From a virus (lineage: Duplodnaviria > Heunggongvirae > Uroviricota > Caudoviricetes): 29,466 nt of DNA. Below, one piece after another: positions 1,049-25,472 of the stretch. Below the pieces are notes generated by a model. It had not been told where the DNA came from and ran no database searches. It was given only the letters and a program-made list of their open reading frames with translations. Location of the stretch: positions 1 to 29,466 of IMG/VR virus record IMGVR_UViG_2565956720_000007, one strand, 5' to 3'. The position numbers and the translations under genes are program-made. Position 1 is the stretch's first letter; each line of letters starts with the position of its first letter.

Positions 1049-1607
1049 GTAGATCAAGAACAGGATGGTGTTAATCACCATCCTGTACACAGGCTATAAT
1101 AATATTATTATTTATTAAGTTTTTCCGACTTTCATTAAAGGAAAATGTCTTTATATTAAAATTGGTTTGAGATTTATAAATCTCTTAGATTATTTTATGA
1201 TTTTTTTCTATGTATTTTTTGAAGAGAAAATGAGTGATATTACTCTCTCTCAATAACTTTTATTGAAGGGTTTAATTATAGAGGTAACGTTCTTTAAGCG
1301 ATTTTACACAGTCTTCCAGAGTAGTGAGTCAGTAGATAATTCCTATCTGTAAAAAAATAATACGGAACTAATATCTGTGAGTTTGTTATCTGTAAAATGA
1401 AATTTTTTACGTTGCTTCGTTCTTACCACGTAACGGACAGTGAGCAGGAACATTAGGTTCACTTAAGCGATACATAGCCACATGACTTCCTTTTCTAACC
1501 GAAGGGAAGAAAAGCAAGGGGAACTCAAAGAAGCAAGCGCAGCGGCTTCGCAGAGTTAGCCCTTGCTTCTCTTATAATTGGCATTATTCATTCAAGAACA
1601 ATAGGAT

Positions 1608-1627
1608 CTTCGCTTGTACAAGCGAAG
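1608..1627. repeat. Perfect 20-bp palindrome cttcgcttgtacaagcgaag in AT-rich non-coding region
   Basis: Read directly: cttcgcttgt is the exact reverse complement of acaagcgaag. Related half-site-like motifs (gaagcaagcg, aagcaaggg/cccttgctt) recur at 1512-1568. Confidence 0.7.
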
Positions 1628-2282
1628 CTATAATAAAAACAATCAATTAATTATTTTTAAAGTATTAAACAAGAACCTATTGACATTCATAAAATACAAG
1701 TTATTTATAATGTATGCCATAAATAAAAAGTTTTATGTCATATGTATCCTGCACTATGTGCAGTTAATGTACCACTTGTCCCATAGATGGGAATATTGGA
1801 AAGGTTACTTTGTTTTGAAGTAGCCTTTCGTCCTTCAATATTAACGATTACTTATTGCTATTACCAAGTCCAGTCGAATCGAAGAACATCTTTTATCTGA
1901 AACGACTCCTAATACCCGGTTAAAGCCACAATATCTCTCGCATACGTAGACCAAAGAAAAATTATGATATTAAATATGTGATTTTTTTTAGTGTTAAGTT
2001 GAATAATTAAATACTGGAGAGTTTTCTGTGCACTACCAATTGCTGGTTCATCTGTTCTGCCGCTGATGTTTCTGACGAATCTCCCGGTGACACAGAACTG
2101 TCCCTCTCTACCAGCCTTTATTCGACTCAATGTCCGGCTGCTGATACGAAGTTATCCCTTCGTATCAATGGCTTACACTTAAACGTAATGCTTTGGTTGC
2201 TGGCGTATCTGACAGCTTCTTCGGCGTGAAGGTCGTTGTGTAAGTATACTTCTTGGTTTATTTAGGCTATATAAAACCATGA

Positions 2283-3179
2283 CTATGACTTGCTGTTTTC
2301 AGTAAGAGTCTTATCATCCAAAGAATTTATTCTAGAAATTCTTTTTAACTCATTAAGATAATCAACCTCGTTTTCTAAGAACCAATGAAGAACTTTAGAA
2401 TTGCCAAGTAATTTATTAATATATGACTGGATTATAACGAATTTCAACATATCTGAACCATACTCGGTTTGAAGCTTTTTCGTTTCTTCCGAAGTTGTTG
2501 CCATTTCTTGTTCCAGACGAAGTATGGTTTTTTTTATGTCCTTTTTATAGGGAGTGTTTTTCCCTTTATTTACTATCATCGATGCCGGTGTTGCATCCAA
2601 GATGCTCATTGCAAATTTTTTACTATAATTATCAAAATTAATCATTGTACCGACTGCTTCAATTTGGCGAATTGGCTTCATTTTCCTCAAAACGTCAAAT
2701 GTAGCCTTAGGTATAGGTTTATCAGAAAGTTTCGCAATTACACTTGAATCTATGCCGTTCATCACATTCGCTTTATCTTTTATGGCATCAACAGATATGC
2801 CCAAAGCAGCACTAAGTTTTTCAATTGATACTTTTGCCAGAGACTTAATTATCATTCTATGTTCTTCAACTACATTTATATGATTCACTTGTTTGTTAGG
2901 AGTGAAAGCATCATCTATGCTCGAAAGTATACATGGAGCTTTTTCTATACCTAAGTCTTTTAAAGCCTCAACCCTTAAATGGCCATCAAGTATCTTAGTG
3001 ACATCTTTATCTTTGTCATAGAATACTATTATTGGTTCAATAATACCTAAGCTTTCGATAGAGGTAACTATATGATGATATTTATGGCTTCGCTTTACGT
3101 TTTCTAATAATTCCTTAGATGGAATTAACTTATTAGTTTCCAGGTAAATAAAATTATCGCCAAAACGTATCTGAATCAT
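2283..3179 (-). CDS. ParB/Srx-superfamily (ParB-like, KorB/RepB-like) protein, paralog 2
   Basis: 298-aa ORF; N-terminal region ILDGHLRVEALKDLG resembles the ParB-box arginine-containing motif; start overlaps stop of upstream ParB-like gene (3176-3179). AT-rich. Confidence 0.6.
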   Translation of the reverse strand: MIQIRFGDNFIYLETNKLIPSKELLENVKRSHKYHHIVTSIESLGIIEPIIVFYDKDKDVTKILDGHLRVEALKDLGIEKAPCILSSIDDAFTPNKQVNHINVVEEHRMIIKSLAKVSIEKLSAALGISVDAIKDKANVMNGIDSSVIAKLSDKPIPKATFDVLRKMKPIRQIEAVGTMINFDNYSKKFAMSILDATPASMIVNKGKNTPYKKDIKKTILRLEQEMATTSEETKKLQTEYGSDMLKFVIIQSYINKLLGNSKVLHWFLENEVDYLNELKRISRINSLDDKTLTENSKS

Positions 3180-4072
3180 TTTAATACCTCTTTGTTTACT
3201 GGGGTTAATATCTGAGATGGTAGTTCTGAAAGATTCTCTTGTTCAAGTATATGTTGAAAGCTTTTATTCATCATTATGATGTTAAAAATCTCATTTACTA
3301 TTAGTAGGTTGGTTTTTATGAATTTTGAGTTGTTATAAACAGATTTATGTTCAGCGATACTATTTTCATAAAGCTCAATCAACTCCTCTGCAGTCATCCT
3401 TTTTGATGGTTTGTGATAATAAAATCCGGCTGCTTTTGCACCTTTATTCCCAACTGTTCTTTGATTTAGAATGTGTTTTATCTTTATAATGTCCCGACTT
3501 TTTATTAATTTTTTATCATATGCTTCGGTAAGAATATCTTGTGCTTCCTCAGTTTCACATCTTGCAAATTGCACTGCGAGATACAGAGGCAAATTACCCC
3601 GTTCGACTGCTGAGAGAAGTTTATGCTCTCCCTTATCAAGTAGCATATTAATACTGCTCACCCAGTTCGATGAATATCCAGTAATCTCACTTATTTCGGA
3701 GTCTGAAAGTCCTCTGATTTTCATGTCTTTAATCACCTGTAATAACTCATTAGAACGTGGTCTTCTCCTTGCAATGTTTTCAACTAAACTCATAACGTAA
3801 GCATCTTCTTCTGATACATCTCTTATAATTGCTGGAATAATAGTTTCACCTAATGCAACGAGAGCCTCTATTCTCCCTTGACCACAAATTAAAGCATATT
3901 TGAAATCGCCTTCATCAATAGCTCTTACGCTTATAGGCTTGCTTAATCCTCTTTTTTTTATGCTTTCCTTTATTTCTTCATGCACTACCTTATTTCTTGT
4001 TCGTGGGTTAAGAAATTTTATTTTTGCAATCTCAATTTGAATTATTGGGAATTCATTTTTTTCAGGCAGCAT
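3176..4072 (-). CDS. ParB/Srx-superfamily (ParB-like) protein with HTH, paralog 1
   Basis: 298-aa ORF; ParB N-terminal motifs GQGRIEALVALG and SLVENIARRRPRSNELLQ followed by a helix-turn-helix-like segment; 11-nt overlap with recombinase gene stop, so translationally coupled operon. Confidence 0.65.
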   Translation of the reverse strand: MLPEKNEFPIIQIEIAKIKFLNPRTRNKVVHEEIKESIKKRGLSKPISVRAIDEGDFKYALICGQGRIEALVALGETIIPAIIRDVSEEDAYVMSLVENIARRRPRSNELLQVIKDMKIRGLSDSEISEITGYSSNWVSSINMLLDKGEHKLLSAVERGNLPLYLAVQFARCETEEAQDILTEAYDKKLIKSRDIIKIKHILNQRTVGNKGAKAAGFYYHKPSKRMTAEELIELYENSIAEHKSVYNNSKFIKTNLLIVNEIFNIIMMNKSFQHILEQENLSELPSQILTPVNKEVLK

Positions 4073-5618
4073 ATAGTTCCCTCACTTTCATGCGAGTAAT
4101 AATTTGTAGAAGTTTATCAAGATTATCAAATCTATAGAGATCTAATCGAATGTTGTTTGTTTCCGTCATGCACATTTTATTATATTCGTTTTCAATCTTT
4201 GGTATGATATAAAAATCAAGAGGTGAAATATTTTGTGAATTCATTCGTATAACAATTGTTATGTCTGCTTTCTGTGAGTTATCAAACCGGACTTTCCATC
4301 TAAGTTTACCTGATTTCATATGTATGCATTTAGTAACAAGGACGGAAATTAAAAACTCATCATTGATGTAAAGCATTGGGGCATATTTATACTCGTCTAT
4401 ATGACAGTTGCTTTTTAAAATTTCACCCTTAAAATCCTCAATTATCTCTGAGTAAAATGATCTTAGTGCTTCATTTATTTTGAGATAGCTGTAATCATGT
4501 TCTGGCTTATAACCAATCAAAGTATATGCTCTTAAAAGACCACCAAATCGGGTTCTATAAACAGAAGATGAAGGGCCTGTATCATCTTCATCAATGATAA
4601 AGCCTGATAGTTTTCCATTAGATTCTAATTTTTGTTTTAGTTTTTCTAATAGATCTTCATTAGTCAAATGAATGGATCGGAGCTGAATTATTTCTTGAGC
4701 TTTATTGTATTTTTTCTTTGAAATAATAGGTTTATATGCCTTGTCACATCTAACCCATTCATGTTTGGGGTTTTTTACAAGCCTACTTTTTAATTTAGAT
4801 GAGGTTTTGTTATATATGTTGTTTCCAATATATTTTTCATTTGTCAAAATTTGATGTATTTTTGCACGAGTCCATAATGTACCATTTTCTGCAGGTATGT
4901 TCTGTTCATTTAATCTCTCAGCAATAATGAATTCTGGGACGTTATTATCTATAAAGAGATCATATATTCTATTTACAATTTTTATTTCATTTTTTGGTCC
5001 CGGAATTAATATTACCCTATCTGTTTGAATACTCTTTCTTTTGCGGAAACTCAATATTTCTTTAGCTATGCCATTTTCGTCTACTAAAAGACGTCTCAGC
5101 CCATAACCAGCCATACCGCCTTGATGATAACCAAGCTTTATTAAATTTACTTGCCCTATAAATACCTTTTCAGATAGATTCCTGCTGTGATATGCAGCAC
5201 TAGATCTTTTTATATTCAGTATAACAGAGGACTCTAAAGGGAAATCTTTAGTGGGTATAGGTTCGGAACAATATATAAGATCTACACCATTTCTCTCAAA
5301 TAGAAAGGAATAATATGCCGCTTCATCACTATTTTGAAAACGACCAAAACGGCTCACATCATAAAATAATACAGCCTGTATATCTATTTTCTTTTGTTCT
5401 ACATCGCTAAGTAACTGCTGCAAAGAATGCCTGCCTACGATACTGACTCCGCTCTTACCTGAATCATCGTAGGTATAAGCGATTTCCATATTGTTCTTTT
5501 CAGCATAATCTTTGATATATTCGGACTGATTATGTAAAGAATATTGCTGATGGTCGGTAGACATCCTCAAGTACTGCGCGACCCTAACTCTATGATTTTT
5601 GTCATTTTCGCTAGCCAT
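4062..5618 (-). CDS. Large serine recombinase (resolvase/invertase catalytic domain plus recombinase domain)
   Basis: 518-aa ORF; N-terminal catalytic motif VAQYLRMSTDHQQYSLHNQ (Y-x-R-x-S...Q of serine recombinases); recombinase-domain-like middle region; first gene of a three-gene minus-strand operon. Confidence 0.8.
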   Translation of the reverse strand: MASENDKNHRVRVAQYLRMSTDHQQYSLHNQSEYIKDYAEKNNMEIAYTYDDSGKSGVSIVGRHSLQQLLSDVEQKKIDIQAVLFYDVSRFGRFQNSDEAAYYSFLFERNGVDLIYCSEPIPTKDFPLESSVILNIKRSSAAYHSRNLSEKVFIGQVNLIKLGYHQGGMAGYGLRRLLVDENGIAKEILSFRKRKSIQTDRVILIPGPKNEIKIVNRIYDLFIDNNVPEFIIAERLNEQNIPAENGTLWTRAKIHQILTNEKYIGNNIYNKTSSKLKSRLVKNPKHEWVRCDKAYKPIISKKKYNKAQEIIQLRSIHLTNEDLLEKLKQKLESNGKLSGFIIDEDDTGPSSSVYRTRFGGLLRAYTLIGYKPEHDYSYLKINEALRSFYSEIIEDFKGEILKSNCHIDEYKYAPMLYINDEFLISVLVTKCIHMKSGKLRWKVRFDNSQKADITIVIRMNSQNISPLDFYIIPKIENEYNKMCMTETNNIRLDLYRFDNLDKLLQIITRMKVRELYAA

Positions 5619-5788
5619 GCACGAAACCTCATGGATGATTCAATACAATGTAGTGGATAAAATTGATCAAATTTTAACCGAATTCAACTGTTTTATCATT
5701 GATTAGAGCGAATTTGGTAGATCTTCGAGGTGTATGATAATCGAGAAGAGATGTGAATTATTTAGCTGATATGACCGACAGCTTTCGT

Positions 5789-5838
5789 TATGTGGACTCA
5801 ATGTCCCCATTTGTAAATGGCTATGCTTAGTCCACATA
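5789..5838. repeat. Composite palindrome (outer 10-bp arms tatgtggact/agtccacata and inner 14-bp palindrome ccatttgtaaatgg sharing one centre) in the region upstream of the recombinase operon
   Basis: Read directly from sequence; both dyads are centred between 5813 and 5814; located between the integrase stop (5901) and the recombinase start (5618). Confidence 0.6.
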
Positions 5839-5900
5839 GGTTAATGGTGTGATTATTAATTCTTTAACTAAATCAAGATAGTTAATCCATCATGGGAGAG

Positions 5901-7130
5901 TTATGCGGCAATAACTTTGCATTTTTGAGACGAAACATAGTCACTCCACCATTGCATGAGAACCACCCGTTCAGTGAGATACTCTGCACGATTGTAGGCT
6001 GCAATTATTTCATCTTTCTTCGAGTGGGCAAGGGCGGCTTCTAAGACATCAGTCCTAAACTTGCCAGACTCCTCAGCAGCCGTTCTAGCAATGGATCGCA
6101 TACCGTGAGCTACAAGCTCACCTCCGAAACCCATACGGATTATGGCCGCATTAGCTGTTTGTTCATGCATGTGATTGAGTGGAGCTTTGATACTGGGGAA
6201 CACCCACTCTCTATGCCCGCTGATGACTTTCATTAAATCCAAAACTCGCAAAGCTTCTTTGCTCAGTGGAACTTTGTGAGGCTTCTTCATTTTCATAAAC
6301 TCCGCCGGGATGTTCCACATGCCAGTTTCAATATCAATATCTGACCATCTTGTGCGAACAGCTTCACCTGGGCGAACCCATGTGAGAAGTTGCCACTCAA
6401 TCAGTAGCCTTGTTTCCAAACGGATAGAAGCATTGTTTAGAGCAACCAAGAAGCGAGGGAGTTCGGAAGGGGGTAATGCTGGCATATTCTGTTTTTTTGG
6501 CTTGCTGAACCGTTGCCCCAGGTTGTCTGCCGGGTTGAATTCTATGAGTTCTTCTGTTGCTGCATAGCGGAAAATTTCATTCAGGCGGGATATGATGCGG
6601 CGAAGTGTTTCAAGGACACCTCGTTTTTCTATGGGTTCTAAATGCTGTTTAAGCATTTTAGGGCGAATCTCCTTAATTGGGGTATCACCCAATGTGGAAA
6701 AGATATTTCTCTCTAGGCTTCGCCAGATGTCGTTAGCATGATCTTGGGAGATGCCTGACGTTTTGACTTTCTCATCAAGCCACTTCTTGGCTACTGCTTG
6801 AAATGTATGTTCCGTGGCATCTTTCAGTGCATTGGCTTTTTGGTTGTTATGAACTTGGGGGTCTATACCATTTGTAAGCAACGACAAGTATTCATCACGT
6901 AAAGCTCGTGCCTTCGCAAGTGTAAGGTGAGGATAGGTTCCTAAGCTCACCTTAGTTCGCTTTTTGGTCACAGGCACTGCATATCTGAAATACCAATTTT
7001 TCTTCCCTCCCTTCGCCAGGGGAGCGATTCGCAACAGCAAACCATCGCCGTCAAAAAGGTTAACCTCTTTTTCGGCAGGTTTGGTGCTTTTGATTTCAGT
7101 GTCAGTGAGCTTCTTAGCGATTTTGGCCAT
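5901..7130 (-). CDS. P4-family tyrosine integrase (CP4-57 IntA-like)
   Basis: Start placed at internal ATG 7128-7130 giving the typical N-terminus MAKIAKKLTDTEIKSTKPAEKEVNLFDGDGLLLRI (arm-binding domain of P4-type integrases); C-terminal catalytic region with conserved R..HxxR..Y context. The longer ORF to 7211 is probably N-terminal overextension. Confidence 0.85.
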   Translation of the reverse strand: MAKIAKKLTDTEIKSTKPAEKEVNLFDGDGLLLRIAPLAKGGKKNWYFRYAVPVTKKRTKVSLGTYPHLTLAKARALRDEYLSLLTNGIDPQVHNNQKANALKDATEHTFQAVAKKWLDEKVKTSGISQDHANDIWRSLERNIFSTLGDTPIKEIRPKMLKQHLEPIEKRGVLETLRRIISRLNEIFRYAATEELIEFNPADNLGQRFSKPKKQNMPALPPSELPRFLVALNNASIRLETRLLIEWQLLTWVRPGEAVRTRWSDIDIETGMWNIPAEFMKMKKPHKVPLSKEALRVLDLMKVISGHREWVFPSIKAPLNHMHEQTANAAIIRMGFGGELVAHGMRSIARTAAEESGKFRTDVLEAALAHSKKDEIIAAYNRAEYLTERVVLMQWWSDYVSSQKCKVIAA

Positions 7131-7228
7131 GTTTGGGACCCTCGATTTTAGGACCCATCTTCGTGGGTCCCATTCAGGGTGCCATAACTCGTAGTTCTCA
7201 GCAATTCTCACTAGACTACAATAGACGT

Positions 7229-7458: not shown

Positions 7459-8484
7459 TTAGCGATGCCAGTTGAGGTTATGAAGTGGATTTTTGGTAAC
7501 GGCATCTTCCAGATGATCCGGTGCAAAATGGGCATAAATCATGGTCATTTTAATATCAGCGTGCCCTAAAATATCCCTCAATACTAAAATGTTTCCGCCG
7601 TTCATCATAAAGTGGCTGGCGAAAGTGTGGCGCAGAACGTGGGTACATTGACCTTCAGGTAGTTCAATTCCAGCTCGTTTTACCGCACGCTCAAAAGCCT
7701 TTCGGCATGGTGTGAATAACTTTCCTCTGTTTTTGGGTAATTCTTCATACAGTTCCTGAGAAATAGGAACAGTTCGGTTTTTCTTTCCTTTTGTTTTGGT
7801 ATAGGTAATTCGATACTTTGATATCTGGTTACCTTGCAGGTTTTCGGCTTCGCTCCATCTTGCCCCGGTTGCCAGACAAATCTTGGCAATCATTAGCAGA
7901 CTGGGACTTTGAGATTCAGCACAAGCGTCAAGCAGGCGTTTGATTTCATCAGCAGCAAGGAACGCCAGTTCACCCTCTGCAATTTTGAAAGTTGGCAGAC
8001 CGGCGAGAGGGTTGGGTGCAGACCAATGTCCCAGCTTTTTCAGTGTGCCAAAAACTGAGGATAGGTTACGTTGTTCAAGGTTCACCGTTCTGGGCTTAAC
8101 TGGTGACATGAGCACACCATCTTCGTTTTTGACCTCACCTTTTAATCTGGCTTCCCGGTATTTTGTGAAATCACCTGCTGTCAATTCAGAAGCGATGGGA
8201 TCGCCAAGCCCATTACAAATGATTTTTAACTTAGCCATTAATCGCTTAGGGTCAGCGAGTGTCTGACCGTACAGGGAATACCATTGCTCAATCACTTCTG
8301 ACAGTTGTCTCCGATCTTCCTTTTCTCCCAGCCAAGGTTTCTTGTTTACCTCGTCCATGGTGAAATTCTCAAACGCAATGGCTTCGCCTTTCGTCGCAAA
8401 TTGTTTGCGTACGCGTTTGCCATCTCGCCCGTTTGGGTAGCATTCACATAACCACTTTCCGTTCGGCTGTTTTCTGATGGTCAT
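7459..8484 (-). CDS. int: P2/186-type phage tyrosine integrase
   Basis: 341 aa; strong similarity to recalled P2 Int, e.g. ATGARWSEAENL and HVLRHTFASHFMMNGGNILVLRDILGHADIKMTMIYAHFAP catalytic region. Confidence 0.9.
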   Translation of the reverse strand: MTIRKQPNGKWLCECYPNGRDGKRVRKQFATKGEAIAFENFTMDEVNKKPWLGEKEDRRQLSEVIEQWYSLYGQTLADPKRLMAKLKIICNGLGDPIASELTAGDFTKYREARLKGEVKNEDGVLMSPVKPRTVNLEQRNLSSVFGTLKKLGHWSAPNPLAGLPTFKIAEGELAFLAADEIKRLLDACAESQSPSLLMIAKICLATGARWSEAENLQGNQISKYRITYTKTKGKKNRTVPISQELYEELPKNRGKLFTPCRKAFERAVKRAGIELPEGQCTHVLRHTFASHFMMNGGNILVLRDILGHADIKMTMIYAHFAPDHLEDAVTKNPLHNLNWHR

Positions 8485-11618: not shown

Positions 11619-12472
11619 GCACCATCCTGAAATGGGCGGGAAATAAAACCGCCATTATGCCAGAACTGAAAAAACACCTTCCAGCTGGCCCGCGACTGGT
11701 TGAACCTTTCGCGGGTTCCTGTGCGGTGATGATGGAGACGGATTATCCAAGCTATCTGGTTGCGGATATTAATCCTGATTTAATCAACCTCTATAAAAAG
11801 GTTGCCGCTGATTGTGAATCGTTTATATCTCGCGCCAGAGTTTTATTTGAGATCGCAAACAGGGAGGTAGCTTATTACAACATAAGGCAGGAGTTTAATT
11901 ACTCAACTGAAATTACTGATTTCATGAAAGCGGTATATTTCCTGTATCTCAATCGTCACGGTTACCGTGGTTTATGTCGCTATAACAAGAGCGGGCATTT
12001 CAATATTCCCTACGGTAATTATAAAAATCCGTATTTCCCTGAAAAAGAAATTCGCGCATTTGCAGAAAAAGCCCAGCGGGCAACGTTTATCTGCGCCAGC
12101 TTTGATGAAACGCTGGCGATGTTGAAGGCGGGGGATGTGGTGTATTGCGATCCGCCTTATGACGGTACGTTTTCCGGCTATCACACTGATGGTTTCACTG
12201 AAGATGACCAGTATCACCTGGCATCCGTTCTTGAACATCGATCATCAGAAGGTCATCCAGTCATTGTTTCTAACAGTGACACATCCCTGATTCGTTCGCT
12301 GTATCGCAATTTTACTCACCACTATATCAAGGTAAAACGCAGCATCGGTGTGGCAGCTGGCGAGTGTAAATCAGCAACAGAAATCATCGCTGTTTCCGGG
12401 CCGCGCTGCTGGGTGGGATTTGATCCTTCGCGTGGCGTGGATAGTTCTGCCGTGTACGGAGTGCGTGCATGA
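11615..12472 (+). CDS. Dam-family DNA N6-adenine methyltransferase
   Basis: Motifs KWAGNK near N-terminus and DPPY catalytic motif; start ATG 11615 with ggagg RBS, overlapping upstream stop (ATGA). Confidence 0.85.
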
Positions 12473-14883
12473 GCCATGCTGATATGAACAACTGCAGCGG
12501 CTTTAACGAGGTCGCAGCAGCATTCTCATGGAGCAGCCCGAAAAAGGCCATTAACCCTTATCTGGACCCGGCGGAAGTTGCGCCGGTTTCTGCGCTTTCA
12601 AACCTGATCACTCTGTACGCTGCCGATAACGAGCAGGAACAGCTGCGCCGTGAGGCGCTGAGTGATCAGGTCTGGGAGCGTTATTTCTTTAATGAATCCC
12701 GTGATCCTGTCCAGCGCGAAATCGAGCAGGATAAGCTCATTAGTCGGGCAAAGCTGGCGCATGAGCAGCAGCGTTTTAATCCGGATATGGTCATTCTGGC
12801 GGACGTCAACGCCCAGCCTTCCCATATCAGCAAGCCGCTGATGCAACGTATTGAATACTTCAGCAGTCTGGGCAGGCCAAAGGCTTATTCCCGCTATTTG
12901 CGTGAGACGATTAAGCCATGTCTGGAACGACTGGAGCATGTACGCGAGAGTCAGCTATCCACTTCTTTTCGCTTTATGGCAAGCCATGAAGGGCTGGACG
13001 GCCTGCTGATCCTGCCTGAAATGAGTCAGGATCAGGTGAAGCGCCTGTCTACCCTTGTTGCCGCGCATATGAGCATGTGCCTTGATGCAGCTTGTGGTGA
13101 TTTGTATGCCACCGATGACGTTAAGCCAGAAGAAATCCGCAAGACATGGGAAAAGGTGGCAGCGGAAACCCTGCGTCTGGATGTAATCCCTCCTGCGTTT
13201 GAGCAACTCCGTCGGAAAAGAAACCGCCGTAAACCCGTGCCCTATGAACTCATTCCGGGTTCGCTGGCGCGTATGTTGTGCGCCGACTGGTGGTATCGGA
13301 AATTATGGAAGATGCGTTGCGAATGGCGGGAAGAGCAGTTGCGTGCTGTCTGCCTGGTCAGCAAAAAAGCATCTCCCTATGTCAGCTATGAAGCCGTGAT
13401 GCATAAACGTGAGCAGCGCCGTAAGTCGCTGGAGTTTTTCCGTTCTCATGAACTGGTGAACGAAGACGGCGACACGCTGGACATGGAGGATGTGGTAAAC
13501 GCCAGCAGCAGCAACCCGGCGCATCGCCGCAATGAGATGATGGCCTGTGTTAAAGGTCTGGAGCTTATCGCGGAAATGCGCGGTGACTGCGCCGTTTTCT
13601 ACACCATCACCTGTCCGTCACGTTTCCATTCCACGCTCAATAACGGCAGACCAAACCCGACCTGGACAAACGCGACGGTAAGACAAAGCAGCGATTATCT
13701 GGTCGGCATGTTTGCTGCATTTCGTAAGGCGATGCACAAAGCCGGGTTGCGCTGGTATGGCGTGCGGGTGGCTGAGCCGCATCATGACGGCACAGTTCAC
13801 TGGCACCTGTTGTGTTTCATGCGCAAAAAAGACCGCCGTGCCATCACTGCATTACTGCGTAAGTTTGCCATCCGTGAAGACCGCGAGGAGCTGGGCAATA
13901 ACACTGGGCCGCGCTTTAAGTCTGAGTTGATTAACCCGCGCAAAGGAACGCCAACAAGCTACGTCGCGAAATACATCAGTAAGAACATTGACGGGCGTGG
14001 TCTGGCTGGCGAGATCAGCAAGGAAACGGGGAAATCCCTGCGTGATAATGCTGAATACGTTAATGCCTGGGCGTCTCTGCATCGTGTTCAGCAATTCCGC
14101 TTCTTTGGCATTCCGGGGCGTCAGGCTTACCGTGAACTGCGATTGCTGGCTGGTCAGGCGGCAAGGCAACAGGGGGACAAAAAAGCAGGTGCGCCGGTAC
14201 TGGATAACCCACGCCTTGATGCCATCCTGGCTGCTGCTGATGCTGGTTGTTTTGCCACCTACATCATGAAGCAGGGCGGCGTACTGGTTCCCCGCAAATA
14301 TCACCTCATCAGAACCGCTTATGAAATCAACGAAGAGCCGACCGCCTATGGCGATCACGGCATTCGTATCTATGGCATCTGGTCACCTATTGCAGAGGGC
14401 AAGATCTGCACTCATGCCGTGAAGTGGAAAATGGTTCGTAAGGCCGTTGATGTTCAGGAGGCGGCAGCCGACCAGGGCGCTTGCGCCCCTTGGACTCGTG
14501 GCAATAACTGTCCCCTTGCTGAAAATTTGTACCAACAAGGGAAAGACAAATCAGCTGATGGAGATACCAGAACGGATATCACCCGCATGGATGACAAGGA
14601 GTTGCACGATTACCTGCACAGTATGAGCAAAAAAGAGCGCCGGGAACTGGCAGCAAGGTTACGCCTGGTGAAACCGAAACGGCGTAAAGACTACAAACAG
14701 CGAATTACAGACCATCAGCGACTGCAGCTCGTGTATGAACTGAAGTCCAGGGGATTTGATGGCAGCGAGAAAGAGGTCGATTTACTGCTTCGCGGCGGCA
14801 GTATTCCGTCAGGAGCAGGCCTGCGTATCTTCTATCGGAACCAGCGTTTGCAGGAAGATGATAAGTGGCGAAACCTGTATTAA
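12469..14883 (+). CDS. A: P2 gpA-like rolling-circle replication initiation protein
   Basis: 804 aa; HUH-type motif HWHLLCF and catalytic tyrosine motif YVAKYISK typical of P2 A/phiX174 A family. Confidence 0.85.
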
Positions 14884-15804: not shown

Positions 15805-16779
15805 ATGGGGTTAGGATTAAAAGACGCTATTGTGCATACCGCTGCGTTTCATCAAAAGGAAACTAATGAATTGCAATTGCCAAACAACCATTGGCATCCT
15901 GGTTTTATCACTGTCTTAGCAGCTTACGTGAATCATCACAAAATTACCGAAGATAACTGCGTTTTGTCATGCCCTGACTATATGCGAGCTATCAATTTAC
16001 ATGGTGCTTTATGGGGCGAGGATCAGTATCAACAGGAACGTGTAAATGTTGGAAGAAATTACAGTTTGGTTACAGCATTAACCAATGTTGAAGCTGTTGA
16101 CGTTGCCACTGGTAGTATTAACAGTTGTGTAAGGCAGTTAACATTCCCTGATCGTGATCCGAGAGATTATCCCAAGGGACTTACAGATCTAACTCATGTT
16201 ATAGGTGAGCTTCACGATAACGTTTGGTCGCATGGAAAATCAACGGGTTTTTCTTTTGCACAACGTTCGGCTGTACCCCACACACAAAGAAAAGAGCACT
16301 ATTTAGAATTTTCTTTGGCGGACTGTGGGTTAGGATTTCTCCGAGAATTGCGGCGAGCTGGTATACCCGGAATTGAGACTCACCAGGATGCGATCGCATG
16401 GTGTATTCAAGAGGGACATTCATCTAAGCATGCTGATTTGCAGGATGATTGGGCACAGCAACTTCCCCAGGATTTTATTGGGGGTAGTATGTTTGGTCAC
16501 GGGGTTTCGGTCAAAGAAAAAGATAATAATCATCAAGGGCTTGGGTTATATCACTTGATGAAATTGATAAAAACATATAATGGGGAATTGCAACTGGCTT
16601 CAGGAAATGTATGCTTAGAAGCAATAGGTGATGAAGTGAGCTATACTGAATTACGTACTAAATGGCCGGGTGTAGCAATTTCTTGCCGTTTTAAGATTCA
16701 TGAACTGGCAGTCGATAAAGATAGCGAAGAAAATGACCCTCAGCTTATGGAAATAATGCGGGCGTTAGGAGGAGAGTAA
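15805..16779 (+). CDS. GHKL-superfamily (histidine-kinase-like) ATPase with uncharacterised N-terminal domain; accessory gene, candidate defence/partner-switching kinase
   Basis: 324 aa; N-box-like ELHDNVWSHG, G1 box DCGLGF, G2 box GHG...QGLGLYHL in correct order and spacing for a HATPase_c fold; about 125 N-terminal residues of no recognisable family; lower GC than flanking phage genes. Confidence 0.6.
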   Translation: MGLGLKDAIVHTAAFHQKETNELQLPNNHWHPGFITVLAAYVNHHKITEDNCVLSCPDYMRAINLHGALWGEDQYQQERVNVGRNYSLVTALTNVEAVDVATGSINSCVRQLTFPDRDPRDYPKGLTDLTHVIGELHDNVWSHGKSTGFSFAQRSAVPHTQRKEHYLEFSLADCGLGFLRELRRAGIPGIETHQDAIAWCIQEGHSSKHADLQDDWAQQLPQDFIGGSMFGHGVSVKEKDNNHQGLGLYHLMKLIKTYNGELQLASGNVCLEAIGDEVSYTELRTKWPGVAISCRFKIHELAVDKDSEENDPQLMEIMRALGGE

Positions 16780-17117
16780 TGAACAAAATCGCATACAAGT
16801 TACCCGAGGGTGACCTGGCTTCGCGCAATCAGGCTATCCCCCAACGACACAAGATTGAAGGGTTCATTAAAGAAGGGTATACCGTAGATTTGGACCTGAG
16901 CGGTGTTTATTCAATTTCAGAATCATACTCTGATGAAATCTTTGGTGTTTTGGTAGTGAAATTCGGTGTAACCAAAGTTTTGAGTCAGGTTAAGGTTCGC
17001 AATGCATCCCCTTCAATTTTAAAAAGTATTGCAAAAGTGATCCAACGTCGTAGCAATGAAGTAGCATCAAAAAAGGTTCATTCCGTTGGATTTGATGGTT
17101 TATACGCCGTTTGTTAA
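16779..17117 (+). CDS. STAS-like (DUF4325-like, anti-sigma-antagonist-like) small protein, partner of the GHKL ATPase
   Basis: 112 aa; start overlaps upstream stop (TAATG); VDLDLSGVYSISESYSDEIFGVLVVKFG resembles the STAS-like DUF4325 signature as I recall it. Confidence 0.5.
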   Translation: MNKIAYKLPEGDLASRNQAIPQRHKIEGFIKEGYTVDLDLSGVYSISESYSDEIFGVLVVKFGVTKVLSQVKVRNASPSILKSIAKVIQRRSNEVASKKVHSVGFDGLYAVC

Positions 17118-17134: not shown

Positions 17135-17165
17135 AAAAGGCGCTGAGATTAGCGCCTTTTCTTTT
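17135..17165. terminator. Bidirectional rho-independent terminator between convergent STAS-like gene and portal gene Q
   Basis: Hairpin ggcgct-gagatt-agcgcc flanked by aaaa on the left and ttttctttt on the right. Confidence 0.7.
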
Positions 17166-18198
17166 ATTCCTGAGCACCTAAAACATAGTCATCAAAACGT
17201 ATTACTTCTGCACCCAGCCAGTCGTTCAGCTCCTGCAGTCGCTTTTGCAGTGGCATCAGTTCATTGCGAACGAAGACACGGCTCGCTTTTTCCACATCAC
17301 CAAAGCCGCCAGTGTTGTTGGGAATGATGCCCATCATTTGTGGTGGTACGCGATGAGCCGCCATCATGTCATCGCGGCTGACGTTCTTGATGTTCAGAAA
17401 TTCATCCTTCGCCGCAACTTCCGACAACGGGATAATCTGAATGCCATCTTTTTTGCCGTTAGGCGAGTACATAAACAGGTTGCGGAAGTTGCCCGGCCCT
17501 TTAGCACTTTTCATTGCCTTGCGGATGTTGTTCACATCCTCCTGGTTCTGCGCGGCGTCGGTCATGTACATGATGAAGCCTGCGTGGCTGCCGTTAATGT
17601 AATACTTGCGGCGGAACAGCGTGGCGGATTCGTTGAGCAGAGCTGACGGAATGGCAGAAAGGTAACCCGGCAGACCATAAATCTCCTGGTTGATATCCGG
17701 CTCCATCAGGTGGAAGACGTTACCTTTTGTGAACTGATACGGCTGTGTCGTCAGGCTGTATTGCACAAACCAGTATGTTTCAAGGTCAAGCCCGCGCCGG
17801 GTGTATTTTGCCAGTGCAGGCTCCAGCGAAATAACTTCACCAAAGCGATTCGTGCGCTTCTCCAGATAGGCGTTACCAAAAACCAGATAGTCCTGCACAA
17901 AACGGGTAAATGCCTGCTGGCTGAGAAGGCGATGTGGAATATAGGTACTGCTGATGATGTCACGTTTAACACTGATCGGGGAGCTGTGGTGCACGGCGGC
18001 GCGGAAGGTTCGTGCCAGTCCGTCAAAACTGACGGGCGGCTCATACCAGCGATCCATCTGTACGCATTCCACATAGTCCAGCAGTTCGCGGCGGTCCAGT
18101 ACAGGAATGGGATCACCAAAGCTGAAAGCCTCAGCAACGGGTTTTTTAGTTTCTTCTGCAGTTACGGTTTCGCCTGGCGCGATATGTTCTTTCATCAA
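17164..18198 (-). CDS. Q: Portal protein (P2 gpQ homolog)
   Basis: 344 aa, same length and position as P2 Q; upstream of terminase P with 4-nt overlap. Confidence 0.85.
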   Translation of the reverse strand: MMKEHIAPGETVTAEETKKPVAEAFSFGDPIPVLDRRELLDYVECVQMDRWYEPPVSFDGLARTFRAAVHHSSPISVKRDIISSTYIPHRLLSQQAFTRFVQDYLVFGNAYLEKRTNRFGEVISLEPALAKYTRRGLDLETYWFVQYSLTTQPYQFTKGNVFHLMEPDINQEIYGLPGYLSAIPSALLNESATLFRRKYYINGSHAGFIMYMTDAAQNQEDVNNIRKAMKSAKGPGNFRNLFMYSPNGKKDGIQIIPLSEVAAKDEFLNIKNVSRDDMMAAHRVPPQMMGIIPNNTGGFGDVEKASRVFVRNELMPLQKRLQELNDWLGAEVIRFDDYVLGAQE

Positions 18199-22761: not shown

Positions 22762-23226
22762 ATGAAGTTTGTTGCGCCAGAACAGGCACCGGAACAGGCG
22801 GAAATCATCAGGAATACGCCGTTCTGGCCTGATGTGGACCTGTCGGAGTTTCGCAGTGTGATGCGCACTGACGGCACGGTGACGCAGCCGCGTTTAAAAC
22901 AGGTTGCCCTGTCGGCAATTTCGGAGGTCAACGCAGAGCTGTATGAGTTTCGCAGACGCCAGCAGATGCTGGGGTATGCCTCGCTGGCAGAAGTCCCGGC
23001 GGAGCAGCTGGACGGCAAAAGCGAGCGCATTCAGCACTATTTCAACGCGGTTTACTGCTGGGCACGCGCCATGCTCAACGAACGTTACCAGGACTATGAC
23101 GCCACGGCATCCGGTGCGAAGCGAGGCGAGGAACTGGCGGAAGCAAGCGGTGATTTATGGCGTGACGCCCGCTGGGCCATCAGCCGGGTGCAGGATGCGC
23201 CGCACTGCACAGTGGAGCTTATCTGA
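22762..23226 (+). CDS. L: Head completion/stabilisation protein (P2 gpL homolog)
   Basis: Start chosen at ATG 22762 with aggag RBS (alternative GTG 22699); IIRNTPFWPDVD...ELWRDARWAISRVQ matches recalled P2 L. Confidence 0.85.
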   Translation: MKFVAPEQAPEQAEIIRNTPFWPDVDLSEFRSVMRTDGTVTQPRLKQVALSAISEVNAELYEFRRRQQMLGYASLAEVPAEQLDGKSERIQHYFNAVYCWARAMLNERYQDYDATASGAKRGEELAEASGDLWRDARWAISRVQDAPHCTVELI

Positions 23227-23429
23227 TGAAAGTGCGTGCGCATCAGTATGACACGGTGGACGCACTTTGCTGGCGTCATTACGGGCGCACGCAGGGTGTC
23301 ACGGAGCAGGTACTGAAGGCAAATCCGGGGCTTGCCGAATACGGCCCCTTTTTACCTCACGGGCTGCAGGTGGAGCTGCCGGACATTCCGACAACCACCA
23401 CCGTGCAGACCGTCCAGCTATGGGACTGA
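23226..23429 (+). CDS. X: Tail protein X (P2 gpX homolog, LysM-like)
   Basis: 67 aa, same length as P2 X; DTVDALCWRHYGRTQGVTEQVLKANPGLAE matches. Confidence 0.9.
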   Translation: MKVRAHQYDTVDALCWRHYGRTQGVTEQVLKANPGLAEYGPFLPHGLQVELPDIPTTTTVQTVQLWD

Positions 23430-23432
23430 ATT

Positions 23433-23648
23433 ATGACGCTTGAGCGAATCAGCGCCTTTATCACGTATTGCATCGCCGTCGTGCTGGCCTGGCTGGGCGA
23501 TTTGTCCATCAAGGATGCCTCAACGCTGGGCGGCCTGATGATTGGTGTGCTGATGCTGGCTATCAACTGGTACTACAAACACAAAGCCTACCAGCTTCTG
23601 CGCGACGGGCAGATCTCGCGGGAGGACTATGAATCCATCAATCGTTAA
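23433..23648 (+). CDS. Holin
   Basis: 71-aa membrane protein with two hydrophobic segments and charged C-terminus, directly upstream of endolysin. Confidence 0.7.
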   Translation: MTLERISAFITYCIAVVLAWLGDLSIKDASTLGGLMIGVLMLAINWYYKHKAYQLLRDGQISREDYESINR

Positions 23649-24141
23649 ACGCTGCCTTGTCGGGGCCGTGCTGGCTATTGCTGCCACGCTGCCGGGTTTT
23701 CAGCAGCTTCACACCTCCGTGGAGGGGCTGAAACTGATTGCTGATTACGAAGGCTGTCGTCTGCAGCCGTATCAGTGCAGCGCGGGTGTCTGGACCGACG
23801 GCATTGGTAATACATCGGGCGTCATTCCCGGCAAAACAATCACGGAACGACAGGCAGCAGAAGGGCTGATCTCCAACGTGCTGCGTGTGGAGCGGGTACT
23901 GGAAAGGTGTGTGAAGCAACTGCCACCACAGAAGGTGTATGACGCTACGGTGTCGTTTGCCTTCAACGTGGGGACGGGCAATGCCTGCAGCTCCACGCTG
24001 GTGAAATTGCTCAATCAGCGGCGCTGGGCGGATGCGTGCCGACAGTTGCCGCGCTGGGTTTATGTAAAAGGTGTGTTTAATCAGGGGCTGGATAACCGCC
24101 GTGCGCGGGAGATGGCCTGGTGTTTACAGGGAGCAAACTGA
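23629..24141 (+). CDS. SAR-type endolysin (T4 lysozyme-like glycoside hydrolase with N-terminal signal-anchor-release segment)
   Basis: N-terminal hydrophobic KRCLVGAVLAIAATLPGF followed by catalytic E-x8-D-x5-T pattern (YEGCRLQPYQCSAGVWTDGIGNT). Confidence 0.8.
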   Translation: MNPSIVKRCLVGAVLAIAATLPGFQQLHTSVEGLKLIADYEGCRLQPYQCSAGVWTDGIGNTSGVIPGKTITERQAAEGLISNVLRVERVLERCVKQLPPQKVYDATVSFAFNVGTGNACSSTLVKLLNQRRWADACRQLPRWVYVKGVFNQGLDNRRAREMAWCLQGAN

Positions 24142-24142
24142 A

Positions 24143-24520
24143 ATGAAAAAGAAATTAATCAGCGGACTGTTTCTGATGTTATGGATGGCGCTGTTAATCG
24201 CAGCAATGGTGTATCCGCAGGGGATTTTTCCGGTACTGGCAGCGTCCGGCGTTTGGGTAGCCTGTTTGCTGACATGGGCGGTAATTCCGGTAGCACTGGC
24301 TGCGTTAATTAAGAATGGCCCGCTCTGGCAGGAGTTAAGGGCATCTTTACTGAAGACAATTACCCGAAAAGAAAACGTATTTATCAGTTGGGTGATGCGA
24401 TTGCTGATTGTTGTAAGTCTCGCCTGGACGGGGTGGGCTATTACCCTAGTCTTTTATCTACTGACCGTTATTGCCTTCTGGATCACCCGTAATCAGATGG
24501 CGCAACAGGTAGCAGCATGA
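24143..24520 (+). CDS. LysA-like membrane protein (lysis timing regulator)
   Basis: 126 aa from ATG 24143, multiple hydrophobic helices, between endolysin and spanin genes as in P2. Confidence 0.6.
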   Translation: MKKKLISGLFLMLWMALLIAAMVYPQGIFPVLAASGVWVACLLTWAVIPVALAALIKNGPLWQELRASLLKTITRKENVFISWVMRLLIVVSLAWTGWAITLVFYLLTVIAFWITRNQMAQQVAA

Positions 24521-24945
24521 ACCGGTTGCTGCTGGTTGTGCTGGCGTTATTACTGGCGGCGCTGGGCTGGCAGACGTGGCGGCTGGCTGATGCCAGCCAG
24601 ACCATCAGCACGCAGGCAGACGAGCTGCAGAGCAAAAGCCAGGCACTGGCAAAGAGCAACAGCCAGCTTATCAGCCTGTCCATTCTGACTGAAACCAATA
24701 ACCGGGAGCAGGCGCGGCTCTATGCCGAAGCAGAACAGACCAGCGCGCTGCTGAGACAACGACAACACCGGATCGAGGAACTGAAACGTGAGAACGAGGA
24801 TTTACGCCGCTGGGCTGATACTCCTTTGCCTGCTGACATTATCCGGCTGCGGGAACGTCCGACGCTCACCGGAGGTGCAGCTTATCGTCAGTGGTTGTCC
24901 GCGAGTGACACCGTGTCGGCTGGATCAGGCAGCGCCGCGCACTAA
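24517..24945 (+). CDS. lysB: LysB-like i-spanin (Rz-like)
   Basis: 142 aa, N-terminal transmembrane helix then coiled-coil-like region; overlaps lysC in another frame. Confidence 0.7.
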   Translation: MNRLLLVVLALLLAALGWQTWRLADASQTISTQADELQSKSQALAKSNSQLISLSILTETNNREQARLYAEAEQTSALLRQRQHRIEELKRENEDLRRWADTPLPADIIRLRERPTLTGGAAYRQWLSASDTVSAGSGSAAH

Positions 24946-25078
24946 CGGTGATCTGAACGCGTTGTTGGATGAAACGGAGGCCGCCTGGGCGGTCTGTGCA
25001 GACAAAGTGGACATGATTATTGCGTGTCAGGAGCAAAACAGTGAACAAACCACAATCCCTGCGCCACGCCCTCAATAA
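24788..25078 (+). CDS. lysC: LysC-like o-spanin lipoprotein (Rz1-like), overlapping the 3' end of lysB
   Basis: GTG start with gaggaa RBS; signal peptide with lipobox LTLSGC; embedded out-of-frame in lysB 3' region (24788-24945). Confidence 0.7.
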   Translation: MRTRIYAAGLILLCLLTLSGCGNVRRSPEVQLIVSGCPRVTPCRLDQAAPRTNGDLNALLDETEAAWAVCADKVDMIIACQEQNSEQTTIPAPRPQ

Positions 25079-25472
25079 AGCTGTGCCTTATGTCCGCAAT
25101 AACCCGGACAAACTGCATCTGTTTGTGGATAACGGTTCGCTGGTTGCCACGGGGGCCAGCTCCATGTCGTGGGAGTACCGTTACACCCTGAACGCGGTGA
25201 TTGAGGATTTCAGCGGCGACCAGAATCTGCTGATGGCCCCGGTTTTGCTGTGGCTGAGGGATAACCAGCCCGATGCCATCAATAACCCGGCGTTACGGGA
25301 AAAACTATTCACCTTTGAGGTGGATATTCTGCGCAACGATGTCTGTGATATCAGCCTGAACCTGCAACTGACGGAGCGTGTGCTGGTCAGCACTGACGGT
25401 AGTGTGTCGAGTGTTGAAGCTATAGCGGAACCTGATGAACCTGAAGAAATGTGGACGGTGAAACGTGGCTGA
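25041..25472 (+). CDS. R: Tail completion protein (P2 gpR homolog)
   Basis: Start at GTG 25041 with aggag RBS; NKPQSLRHALNKAV...LHLFVDNGSLVATGAS matches recalled P2 R. Confidence 0.85.
   Translation: MNKPQSLRHALNKAVPYVRNNPDKLHLFVDNGSLVATGASSMSWEYRYTLNAVIEDFSGDQNLLMAPVLLWLRDNQPDAINNPALREKLFTFEVDILRNDVCDISLNLQLTERVLVSTDGSVSSVEAIAEPDEPEEMWTVKRG

Follow-up and report, generated by a model that had tools for sequence, protein, structure and literature searches.

Organization of the lysis cassette

The lysis cassette is an unbroken run of five plus-strand genes spanning exactly positions 23433-25078 of the window, the 29,466-nucleotide stretch of viral DNA analyzed here (IMG/VR record IMGVR_UViG_2565956720_000007). 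It is real and intact at the place given for it in the preliminary description. The gene order X - holin - endolysin - lysA - lysB - lysC - R is that of P2, with tail genes forming both boundaries (Table 1). Gene R probably begins at a GTG codon at 25041 with an AGGAG 5′ of the start, and the same start is annotated in phage 500465-1. The P2-like phage setting proposed earlier is supported by Pfam matches to GpL, tail X, and GpR, and by a nucleotide identity of 97.4-97.7% to Peduoviridae relatives over 23200-25100. Substitutions are few, and those in the endolysin include V90, L98, and T107, where most relatives carry A, Q, and A/V, respectively. PADLOC, when run on the cargo ORFs, returned a weak match to a DrmA fragment and nothing else.

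Table 1. Features of the lysis cassette and its boundaries, in window coordinates.
Feature	Position	Strand	Evidence
Tail gene X (upstream boundary)	23226..23429	+	Pfam Phage_tail_X, E 2e-34
Holin, 71 aa, two TMDs	23433..23648	+	Pfam Phage_holin_2_3 (HP1 family, PF16080), 36.7 bits (cutoff 28.8); phrog_20 holin, E 1.9e-26
SAR-type endolysin, 170 aa, GH24 lysozyme	23629..24141	+	Pfam Phage_lysozyme/GH24 (PF00959), E 6e-39
Predicted SAR domain, endolysin residues 9-31	23653..23721	+	Composition; Cys9 conservation
Endolysin catalytic motif E41-G-C43-RLQPYQ-C50-SAGVW-T56	23749..23796	+	Alignment to 1XJT
LysA homologue, 125 aa, about four TMDs	24143..24520	+	phrog_162, E 8e-44; NCBIfam NF038378, E 5e-36; P2 synteny
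LysB, i-spanin, 142 aa	24517..24945	+	TIGR03495 phage_LysB (NCBIfam equivalog), 174 bits (cutoff 92.75); phrog_89
LysC, o-spanin, 96 aa, GTG start	24788..25078	+	NF038368 P2_Rz1, 124 bits (cutoff 27); Pfam LysC
Tail completion gene R (downstream boundary)	25041..25472	+	Pfam P2_Phage_GpR, E 6e-46

Holin

Two TMDs are predicted in the holin, at approximately residues 6-22 and 32-48; its C-terminus is charged, and the topology is class II. TMD1 is fairly hydrophobic, and a GxxxGxxxA motif (G34xxxG38xxxA42) can be read in TMD2. The protein resembles pinholins in being small, in having two TMDs with N- and C-termini that are predicted to be cytoplasmic, and in being encoded next to a SAR endolysin gene. 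A search of the holin for a dual-start motif found none, and its score against the P21 holin S family (PF04971) was 23.2 bits, below the gathering cutoff of 26. The pairwise match between the holin and P2 Y is weak.

Endolysin family, start codon, and catalytic residues

The endolysin gene shares 20 nt with the 3′-end of the holin gene. Its ATG at 23629 is the first start codon past the upstream stop and is served by a GGGAGG Shine-Dalgarno sequence, and residues M1, V6, R8, and C9 are invariant across 26 homologues; the start is therefore not a product of faulty ORF calling. The record of phage vB_EcoM-813R9 instead places the start at a GTG at codon 14, with loss of Cys9 and the beginning of the predicted SAR domain. 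This alternative was rejected on the conservation of residues 1-13 and the strong Shine-Dalgarno sequence at the ATG.

Among PDB entries, the endolysin is matched best by P1 Lyz (1XJT, E 5.5e-26); R21 and DLP12 RrrD come lower in the list. BLASTP aligns it to P1 Lyz at 38% identity (E 2e-33). An AlphaFold2 model built on a shallow alignment (26 sequences at 80-99% identity) was used for Foldseek only, where RrrD, P1 Lyz (TMq 0.72), and R21 were the top matches; the pLDDT of this model is 70 and falls below 50 in the catalytic loop (residues 42-69), and the model is silent on the disulfide state.

The catalytic residues E41-x8-C50-x5-T56 have the canonical E-x8-[D/C]-x5-T spacing and align to E42/C51/T57 of P1 Lyz, and the motif EGCRxxPYxCxAGVWTDGIGNT is common to both enzymes. 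E41, C50, and T56 are invariant in the 26 homologues, where conservation of C43 is 90% or higher. An E-D-T triad had been described for this protein; the alignment to 1XJT does not bear this out, as the middle residue is Cys50 and the triad is E-C-T, as in P1 Lyz. The distinction matters because the counterpart of Cys50 is covalently blocked in the inactive form of P1 Lyz, whose triad Cys is kept in a disulfide until activation (PMC3556154).

Many database homologues of 277-296 aa carry both PF00959 and PF28015, which suggested a programmed fusion of the endolysin to LysA. This candidate was rejected, as the junction varies among the fused proteins, three of which are joined after Q167, A163, and R160, as most of them are singletons, and as the lysA frame happens to stay open for 24 codons upstream of the lysA ATG. 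The fused homologues have the appearance of frameshift errors or mutations that occurred independently.

The endolysin N-terminus

The endolysin begins with MNPSIVKR, in which K7 and R8 are basic, followed by 23 uncharged residues, CLVGAVLAIAATLPGFQQLHTSV (residues 9-31). The mean Kyte-Doolittle hydropathy of this stretch is 1.30, with 39% Gly/Ala/Ser/Thr, compared with 1.48 and 50% for the 24-residue SAR stretch of P1 Lyz. Being uncharged, weakly hydrophobic, rich in Gly/Ala/Ser/Thr, and preceded by basic residues, it has the characteristics given for SAR domains (PMC9239132). The regulatory Cys set of the P1 Lyz class is also present (C9/C43/C50 here, C13/C44/C51 in P1 Lyz), and each enzyme has seven Cys in corresponding positions (9/43/50/94/120/137/165 here, 13/44/51/91/118/150/178 in P1 Lyz). 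The P1 Lyz residue numbers were worked out from the P1 genome and its 1XJT alignment. HMMER and BLAST place Cys9 and P1 Lyz Cys13 in different alignment columns, and their correspondence is drawn from spacing and conservation. Cys9 is the predicted isomerizing thiol.

The conservation of this residue was surveyed among 150 representatives clustered at 50% identity, of which 20 combine a hydrophobic N-terminus with C43 and C50. In 18 of these 20 (38-72% identity) there is exactly one N-terminal Cys, located 30-32 residues before the catalytic Glu; the distance is 32 residues here and 29 in P1 Lyz. Such spacing of a single Cys would be expected by chance in approximately 24% of proteins, giving a binomial P of approximately 1e-9 when phylogeny is ignored. 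C43 and C50 are also both present in many soluble relatives that have no N-terminal extension (20 of the 66 that lack a hydrophobic N-terminus), so the C43/C50 pair alone is not diagnostic of SAR regulation.

An ordinary Sec signal peptide could have a similar appearance. The segment would then be cleaved to leave a soluble periplasmic enzyme under some other control, as for fOg44 Lys44, and the sequence does have an n-h-c-like layout, with MNPSIVKR followed by a hydrophobic core (C9-L21) and the helix breakers P22 and G23. When read for cleavage sites, it offers weak -3/-1 candidates at L27-H28-T29 before S30 and at A16-I17-A18 before A19, but no A-x-A site after P22-G23. The conserved spacing of the lone Cys in 18 of the 20 relatives also argues against a signal peptide, as a discarded leader would have no reason to retain it. 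Moreover, the alignment to active P1 Lyz (1XJT) starts at query residue 13, inside the segment, so the equivalent region of P1 Lyz belongs to the crystallized enzyme, and P1 Lyz and R21, the closest characterized relatives, are uncleaved (PMC6116005). Cleavage is therefore considered very unlikely.

At the other extreme, the N-terminal helix may be a permanent type II signal anchor, with the enzyme either active while tethered or left without function as the prophage decays. The N-terminus does reach a hydropathy of 1.95 in its best 17-residue window, little below the values of the bona fide TMDs of the cassette (2.12-2.45). Taken as a whole, however, the uncharged stretch is less hydrophobic than the P1 SAR domain, and the purified KP12 protein was reported to be lytic in spot tests, though the discussion in that paper is hedged (PMC9902359). 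Evidence against decay comes from the intact state of all cassette ORFs and from their 97-98% conservation in phages obtained as virions or by induction. A permanent anchor or a decayed gene is extremely improbable.

The composition of the segment, its single conserved Cys, and P1 Lyz as the best PDB relative instead uphold the SAR-like hydrophobic N-terminus that had been noted ahead of the catalytic residues. Assignment of the endolysin to the SAR type is well supported by inference from sequence, and Sec export, non-cleavage, and release would be expected by homology. SAR endolysins are exported by Sec, remain uncleaved, and are freed when the PMF collapses (PMC6116005; PMC9239132). In characterized systems their export occurs without a holin, but timely release and activation need holin-driven depolarization (PMC9239132; PMC6116005). 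The holin-independent export put forward in the preliminary description gives only half of the picture, and a holin gene lies directly upstream of the endolysin gene here. The definitive test of a SAR endolysin is its membrane release and activation on depolarization or pinholin triggering (PMC9239132).

Activation may instead be of the R21 type, resulting solely from the released SAR helix refolding into the catalytic domain, in which case the Cys residues would be structural and no isomerization would occur. R21 and RrrD are likewise significant structural and sequence relatives of the endolysin, and the presence of C43 and C50 in many relatives without an N-terminal TMD allows these residues another purpose. 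However, the middle triad residue is Asp in enzymes of the R21 type but Cys in the endolysin, which carries the full P1 set of three regulatory Cys along with the same four additional Cys. In addition, 18 of the 20 TMD-bearing relatives have the SAR Cys together with C43 and C50, and P1 Lyz is closer than any other relative by E-value. Activation of the R21 type is judged distinctly unlikely, and regulation of the P1 Lyz type is preferred.

LysA homologue

Between the endolysin gene and lysB, in the position of P2 lysA, lies a gene for a 125-aa protein with approximately four hydrophobic segments, which was absent from the earlier reading of the cassette. P2 LysA belongs to the same PHROG (E 1.8e-67), though the pairwise match between the two proteins is weak. 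The homologue is a putative lysis-timing protein or antiholin; P2 LysA has been stated to delay lysis as a holin antagonist (PMC3091744).

The neighbors of this retained phrog_162 protein, the holin and the endolysin, are of families unrelated to those of P2, and LysA is absent from a Yersinia phage of the Peduoviridae in which the same holin/SAR-endolysin pair is found. Because of this distribution, LysA could be viewed as a holin-agnostic membrane timer rather than a holin-specific antiholin, acting, for example, via the PMF, membrane properties, or the retention and release of the SAR domain. Such a role, loosely analogous to that of Mu releasin and opposite in sign, is unlikely.

Spanins

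LysB has a predicted N-terminal TMD (residues 4-19) and a predicted helical periplasmic domain, and is 33% identical to P2 LysB, also a member of phrog_89. The lysC gene starts at GTG 24788, 7 nt downstream of a GAGGA Shine-Dalgarno sequence, in the +1 frame of lysB, which agrees with the out-of-frame start within lysB that had been noted. LysC, a predicted outer-membrane lipoprotein, has an L-S-G-C lipobox, with Cys21 followed by Gly at +2, that aligns with the AGC lipobox of P2 LysC. The starts annotated further downstream in KP12 and 500465-1 were rejected, as they would remove this lipobox.

The lysC gene had also been described as embedded in lysB, which is the lambda Rz/Rz1 arrangement. 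This does not apply, as the first 158 nt of lysC coincide with lysB and the gene then continues for 133 nt after the stop of lysB (24945), its last 38 nt overlapping gene R. An o-spanin gene that begins out of frame in the i-spanin gene and passes the i-spanin stop defines the overlapped architecture (PMC6139136), the commonest among the two-component spanin systems surveyed (228/528; PMC6139136). By sequence, LysB and LysC are a predicted two-component spanin of overlapped architecture, P2 type.

Proposed lysis pathway and significance

The locus is very likely the lysis cassette in the late operon of an intact P2-like prophage (Peduoviridae), with P2 Y and K replaced by a two-TMD holin of the HP1 family and a SAR lysozyme of the P1 Lyz type. 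Each step of the pathway proposed for it is modeled by homology on P1 Lyz. First, the endolysin would be exported by the host Sec system, with no need for the holin, and tethered to the energized inner membrane by its uncleaved SAR helix. While tethered, it would be held inactive through a disulfide between the catalytic Cys50 and Cys43. Once the holin triggers and the membrane depolarizes, the SAR helix would exit the bilayer, and the free thiol of Cys9 would attack the C43-C50 disulfide to form a C9-C43 bond. The freed Cys50 would then complete the E41/C50/T56 active site for degradation of the murein, after which the complex of the LysB and LysC spanins, products of the overlapped genes, would disrupt the outer membrane. 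The LysA homologue probably modulates the timing of lysis.

SAR endolysins have been understood since 2004-2005. The cassette is likewise already known, as a near-identical cluster from Klebsiella phage KP12 has been published with its SAR domain and overlapped spanins described (PMC9902359); a literature search on SAR endolysins in Fels-2 and other Peduoviridae returned this paper only. The practical value of the analysis lies in annotation, given that relatives in GenBank/RefSeq have truncated o-spanin genes, one mis-set endolysin start, and one mislabelled LysA. Antimicrobial engineering of the endolysin should take account of a probable regulatory role for the N-terminal helix and Cys9/43/50, as opposed to that of a dispensable leader.

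Comparison with known systems

The cassette of Klebsiella phage KP12 (KP12.peg.316-320, OM835953) is 97.7% identical and agrees in all five genes and in their order. It is also found in other phages, among them Escherichia phage 500465-1 (Wadgaonvirus, NC_049342) and Klebsiella phage 4LV2017. The KP12 study independently described peg.319 as conserving the P1 Lyz SAR domain and pegs 316/317 as P2-type overlapped spanins (PMC9902359). The o-spanin is annotated at 57 aa in KP12 and at 39 aa in 500465-1, both shorter than the 96-aa model presented here, and the 500465-1 record labels the LysA homologue as "endolysin."

P1 Lyz (PDB 1XJT/1XJU), the prototype SAR endolysin with disulfide isomerization, shares with the endolysin its GH24 fold, the E-x8-C-x5-T triad, the Cys two residues past the Glu, and the lone Cys in an uncharged N-terminal stretch of 23-24 residues that follows basic residues. 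The endolysin is 15 residues shorter than P1 Lyz and is without an insertion of approximately 11 residues after the NVG/NMG motif. The genetic settings also differ, as P1 lyz lies ahead of lydD, a pinholin gene, and has no linkage to lydA/lydB, whereas here the holin gene is directly upstream of the endolysin gene in a P2-type cassette. For the pinholin status of P1 LydD, complementation with lambda R has been used (PMC9025707).

Phage 21 likewise encodes a small two-TMD holin (S21) just upstream of and overlapping the gene for a SAR lysozyme (R21) that is a significant relative of the endolysin. In contrast to phage 21, the cassette has a holin that scores below the P21 S cutoff and is without the dual-start motif, a triad with Cys in place of Asp, a Cys in the SAR domain, and spanin genes that are overlapped rather than embedded.

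The P2 cassette (Y, K, lysA, lysB, lysC) occupies the same late-operon place between X and R in the same order. Its first two genes are of different families: P2 Y is a three-TMD holin of PF04550/phrog_175, in contrast to the HP1-type two-TMD holin (PF16080/phrog_20) found here, and P2 K is a soluble endolysin of phrog_90, to which no similarity was found in the GH24 SAR lysozyme. LysA, LysB, and LysC, however, belong to the same PHROGs as in P2 (162, 89, and 456/952, respectively) and are homologous. The correspondence is closest for lysC, whose geometry is identical to that of P2 in its length of 96 aa, +1 frame, 38-nt overlap with R, and start position, with GTG as the start codon here and ATG in P2, and whose product is 41-42% identical to its P2 counterpart along all 96 aa, with five Cys conserved.

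Organization of the lysis cassette

The window is a P2-like prophage, as the preliminary description had proposed, and carries an integrase, a CI repressor, replication gene A, gpL, and the P2-type tail genes X and R. An unbroken run of plus-strand genes spans window 23433-25078, precisely the outer limits first assigned to the lysis cassette. The cassette is real, though its first gene list left out the LysA homologue, and two details were wrong: the catalytic triad is E-C-T and the spanin genes are overlapped. The holin and endolysin genes share 20 nt, and the phage 21 S holin model matches the holin at only 23.2 bits, under that model's cutoff (Pfam).

Features of the window in and around the lysis cassette
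Feature	Coordinates	Strand	Observations
Type ISP/IIG restriction-modification enzyme, C-terminal part	68-1048		left flank
Two ParB/RepB-like genes	2283-4072	-	left flank
Large serine recombinase	4062-5618	-	left flank
Second tyrosine integrase	5901-7211	-	left flank
Integrase	7459-8484	-	P2-like prophage gene
Gene A	12469-14883		replication
Two-gene cargo	15805-17117	+	between genes A and Q
Portal gene Q	17164-18198	-	
Tail gene X	23226-23429		flanks cassette; Pfam Phage_tail_X
Holin	23433-23648	+	71 aa, two hydrophobic segments; Pfam HP1 holin family, 36.7 bits
Endolysin, GH24 lysozyme	23629-24141	+	170 aa; PF00959, E 6e-39
LysA homologue	24143-24520	+	125 aa, about four hydrophobic segments; phrog_162, E 8e-44; NCBIfam NF038378
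LysB, i-spanin	24517-24945	+	142 aa; TIGR03495, 174 bits (cutoff 92.75)
LysC, o-spanin	24788-25078	+	96 aa; NF038368 P2_Rz1, 124 bits (cutoff 27); lipobox LSGC at Cys21
Tail-completion gene R	25041 (probable GTG) to 25472		flanks cassette; Pfam P2_Phage_GpR

The cassette is already known and of an ordinary kind. Region 23200-25100 shares 97.4-97.7% identity with Klebsiella phage KP12, about thirty other Klebsiella prophage-derived phages, Escherichia phage 500465-1 (classed in Peduoviridae, Wadgaonvirus), and others, and 80-90% with Salmonella and Felsduovirus relatives. For the 97.7% identical KP12 cassette (KP12.peg.316-320), P2 cassette architecture with overlapped i- and o-spanins, conservation of the P1 Lyz SAR domain in the endolysin KP12.peg.319, and a TM-align score of 0.83 for this endolysin against 1XJT have been described (PMC9902359). 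The cysteine analysis and the assignment of peg.318 as LysA are absent from that paper, which reports no test of holin-independent export or lysis and whose discussion gives lytic activity against Gram-negative bacteria as unverified (PMC9902359).

Several annotation errors in related phages correspond to window 23629-25078. The o-spanin is annotated too short in 500465-1 (NC_049342; 39 aa) and KP12 (OM835953; 57 aa), losing the lipobox; the LysA homologue is called "endolysin" in the RefSeq records of 500465-1 and P2; and the endolysin start of vB_EcoM-813R9 (ON470620) is set at GTG codon 14, losing K7, R8, and Cys9. Endolysin-LysA fusions account for dozens of the proteins entered as "lysozymes" in databases (PF00959 + PF28015; e.g., P0006, P0014, P0018, and P0019; 277-296 aa). 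A programmed fusion was rejected, since the junctions lie at differing codons and nearly all forms are singletons; they resemble separate frameshift events that enter the reading frame of lysA, where the 24 codons before the lysA ATG are free of stops (window 24071-24145). One fused form, P0014, occurs on 30 contigs and could reflect a genuine mutation carried by a clonal lineage.

Elsewhere in the window, the two-gene cargo occupies the position of the P2 "old" hotspot. The product of its first gene (324 aa) matched nothing in Pfam or PADLOC, and that of its second is a 112-aa DUF4325 (STAS-like) protein weakly matching a segment of DrmA (E 2e-6); the pair may be anti-phage defence cargo. The left flank (window 68-7211) is not P2-like and appears to be a separate integrative element or defence island adjoining the integrase end of the prophage.

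The endolysin as a probable SAR enzyme

The endolysin start at ATG 23629 is secure, since it is the earliest possible start downstream of the preceding stop, is preceded by GGGAGG, and M1, V6, R8, and C9 are invariant among 26 homologues (80-99% identity). K7 and R8 are followed by 23 uncharged residues (CLVGAVLAIAATLPGFQQLHTSV) with a mean Kyte-Doolittle value of 1.30 and 39% Gly/Ala/Ser/Thr, compared with 24 residues, 1.48, and 50% in P1 Lyz (translated from the P1 genome). Such a layout agrees with how SAR domains are described in practice, with basic residues preceding a weakly hydrophobic TMD that contains many small residues (PMC9239132). The nearest solved relative is P1 Lyz (1XJT, E 5.5e-26), and the SAR endolysins R21 and DLP12 RrrD were matched in the same search; Foldseek with a mediocre AlphaFold model (pLDDT 70) likewise placed RrrD, P1 Lyz (TMq 0.72), and R21 at the top. 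Together with a Cys at fixed spacing in relatives, these results uphold the SAR-like N-terminus originally noted, and homology and conservation support the SAR interpretation well.

Alignment to P1 Lyz places the triad at E41, C50, and T56, where E-D-T had been claimed. The segment E41-G-C43-R-L-Q-P-Y-Q-C50-S-A-G-V-W-T56 corresponds residue for residue to E42-G-C44-R-R-D-P-Y-M-C51-P-A-G-V-W-T57 of P1 Lyz, and each enzyme has seven Cys in corresponding places (9/43/50/94/120/137/165 and 13/44/51/91/118/150/178, respectively). The title of Xu et al. 2005 states that activation occurs by disulfide isomerisation once the SAR domain has been released from the membrane, and that paper reportedly describes the chemistry of C13, C44, and C51 in P1 Lyz. 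The difference between E-C-T and E-D-T is mechanistically important, given that the triad Cys of P1 Lyz stays locked in a disulfide up to activation (PMC3556154).

Homologues were sought in a set of 1.84 billion representative sequences (clustered at 50% identity). Those kept from the best 150 matches began with Met, had a simple N-terminus, and shared at most 75% identity with the window endolysin. Among these, 20 relatives have an N-terminal hydrophobic domain together with C43 and C50, and 18 of the 20 carry a single Cys within or next to this domain, in every case 30-32 residues before the catalytic Glu (32 in the window endolysin, 29 in P1 Lyz). At a chance Cys rate of ~24% per segment, at least 18 of 20 has P ~1e-9, phylogenetic relatedness being ignored. 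If the N-terminal segment were instead a leader peptide, cut off and degraded, a positionally fixed Cys would not be expected to persist in it, and inspection of the sequence beyond the helix breakers P22 and G23 found no A-x-A site. The fixed Cys thus argues that the segment is retained in the mature, regulated endolysin. The C43/C50 pair alone is not diagnostic of SAR, since diverged GH24 relatives without an N-terminal hydrophobic domain include 20 with both residues and 20 more with C50 alone; endolysins that appear soluble thus often have a catalytic Cys, or even the pair, and it has been suggested that such enzymes stem from SAR ancestors (PMC3556154).

In the most likely mechanism, the Sec system would export the endolysin, and the SAR helix would hold it at the energised inner membrane, inactive through a C43-C50 disulfide. 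Holin triggering would collapse the PMF and let the helix leave the bilayer, whereupon Cys9 would isomerise the disulfide, freeing Cys50 for murein degradation; LysB and LysC would then disrupt the outer membrane, and LysA would probably tune lysis timing. "Holin-independent" would apply to endolysin export only; in characterised SAR systems the holin is required for sharp, timed lysis, and spontaneous release leads to slow lysis (PMC9239132; PMC9025707).

Comparison with P2 and other Peduoviridae

The lysC gene starts at GTG 24788, 7 nt downstream of a GAGGA motif and at the position of the P2 lysC ATG. It lies in the +1 frame relative to lysB, shares 158 nt with it, and runs 133 nt beyond the lysB stop, its final 38 nt overlapping gene R. 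It is therefore out of frame and begins inside lysB, as first described, but is not embedded. By published definitions, which distinguish overlapped from lambda-type embedded spanin genes and have P2 as the experimentally tested overlapped example (PMC6139136), the architecture is overlapped. P2 LysC is 41-42% identical over all 96 residues, conserving the lipobox Cys and four others, and P2 LysB is 33% identical over 75 residues of the C-terminal half.

LysA, LysB, and LysC of P2 share PHROGs with the window proteins (162, 89, and 456/952), whereas holin and endolysin differ in family: P2 has Y (PF04550, phrog_175, three TMDs) and K (phrog_90), and the window has a PF16080 holin (phrog_20) and a PF00959 endolysin (phrog_7). 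In pairwise BLAST, K showed no similarity to the window endolysin and Y a weak similarity to the holin. The holin-endolysin pair as a whole therefore differs from that of P2, with the accessory and spanin genes of P2 retained. Other Peduoviridae of Klebsiella and Yersinia also carry this SAR-type endolysin, again directly downstream of a holin gene. In one of them, Yersinia phage vB_YenM_56.17 (positions 1590-2719), a small holin gene precedes an endolysin 62% identical to that of the window, but lysA is missing between the endolysin gene and lysB, unlike in window 23433-24945. Given this absence, and since the LysA family in P2 accompanies a Y/K pair unrelated to the window holin and endolysin, LysA is not tied to one holin family.
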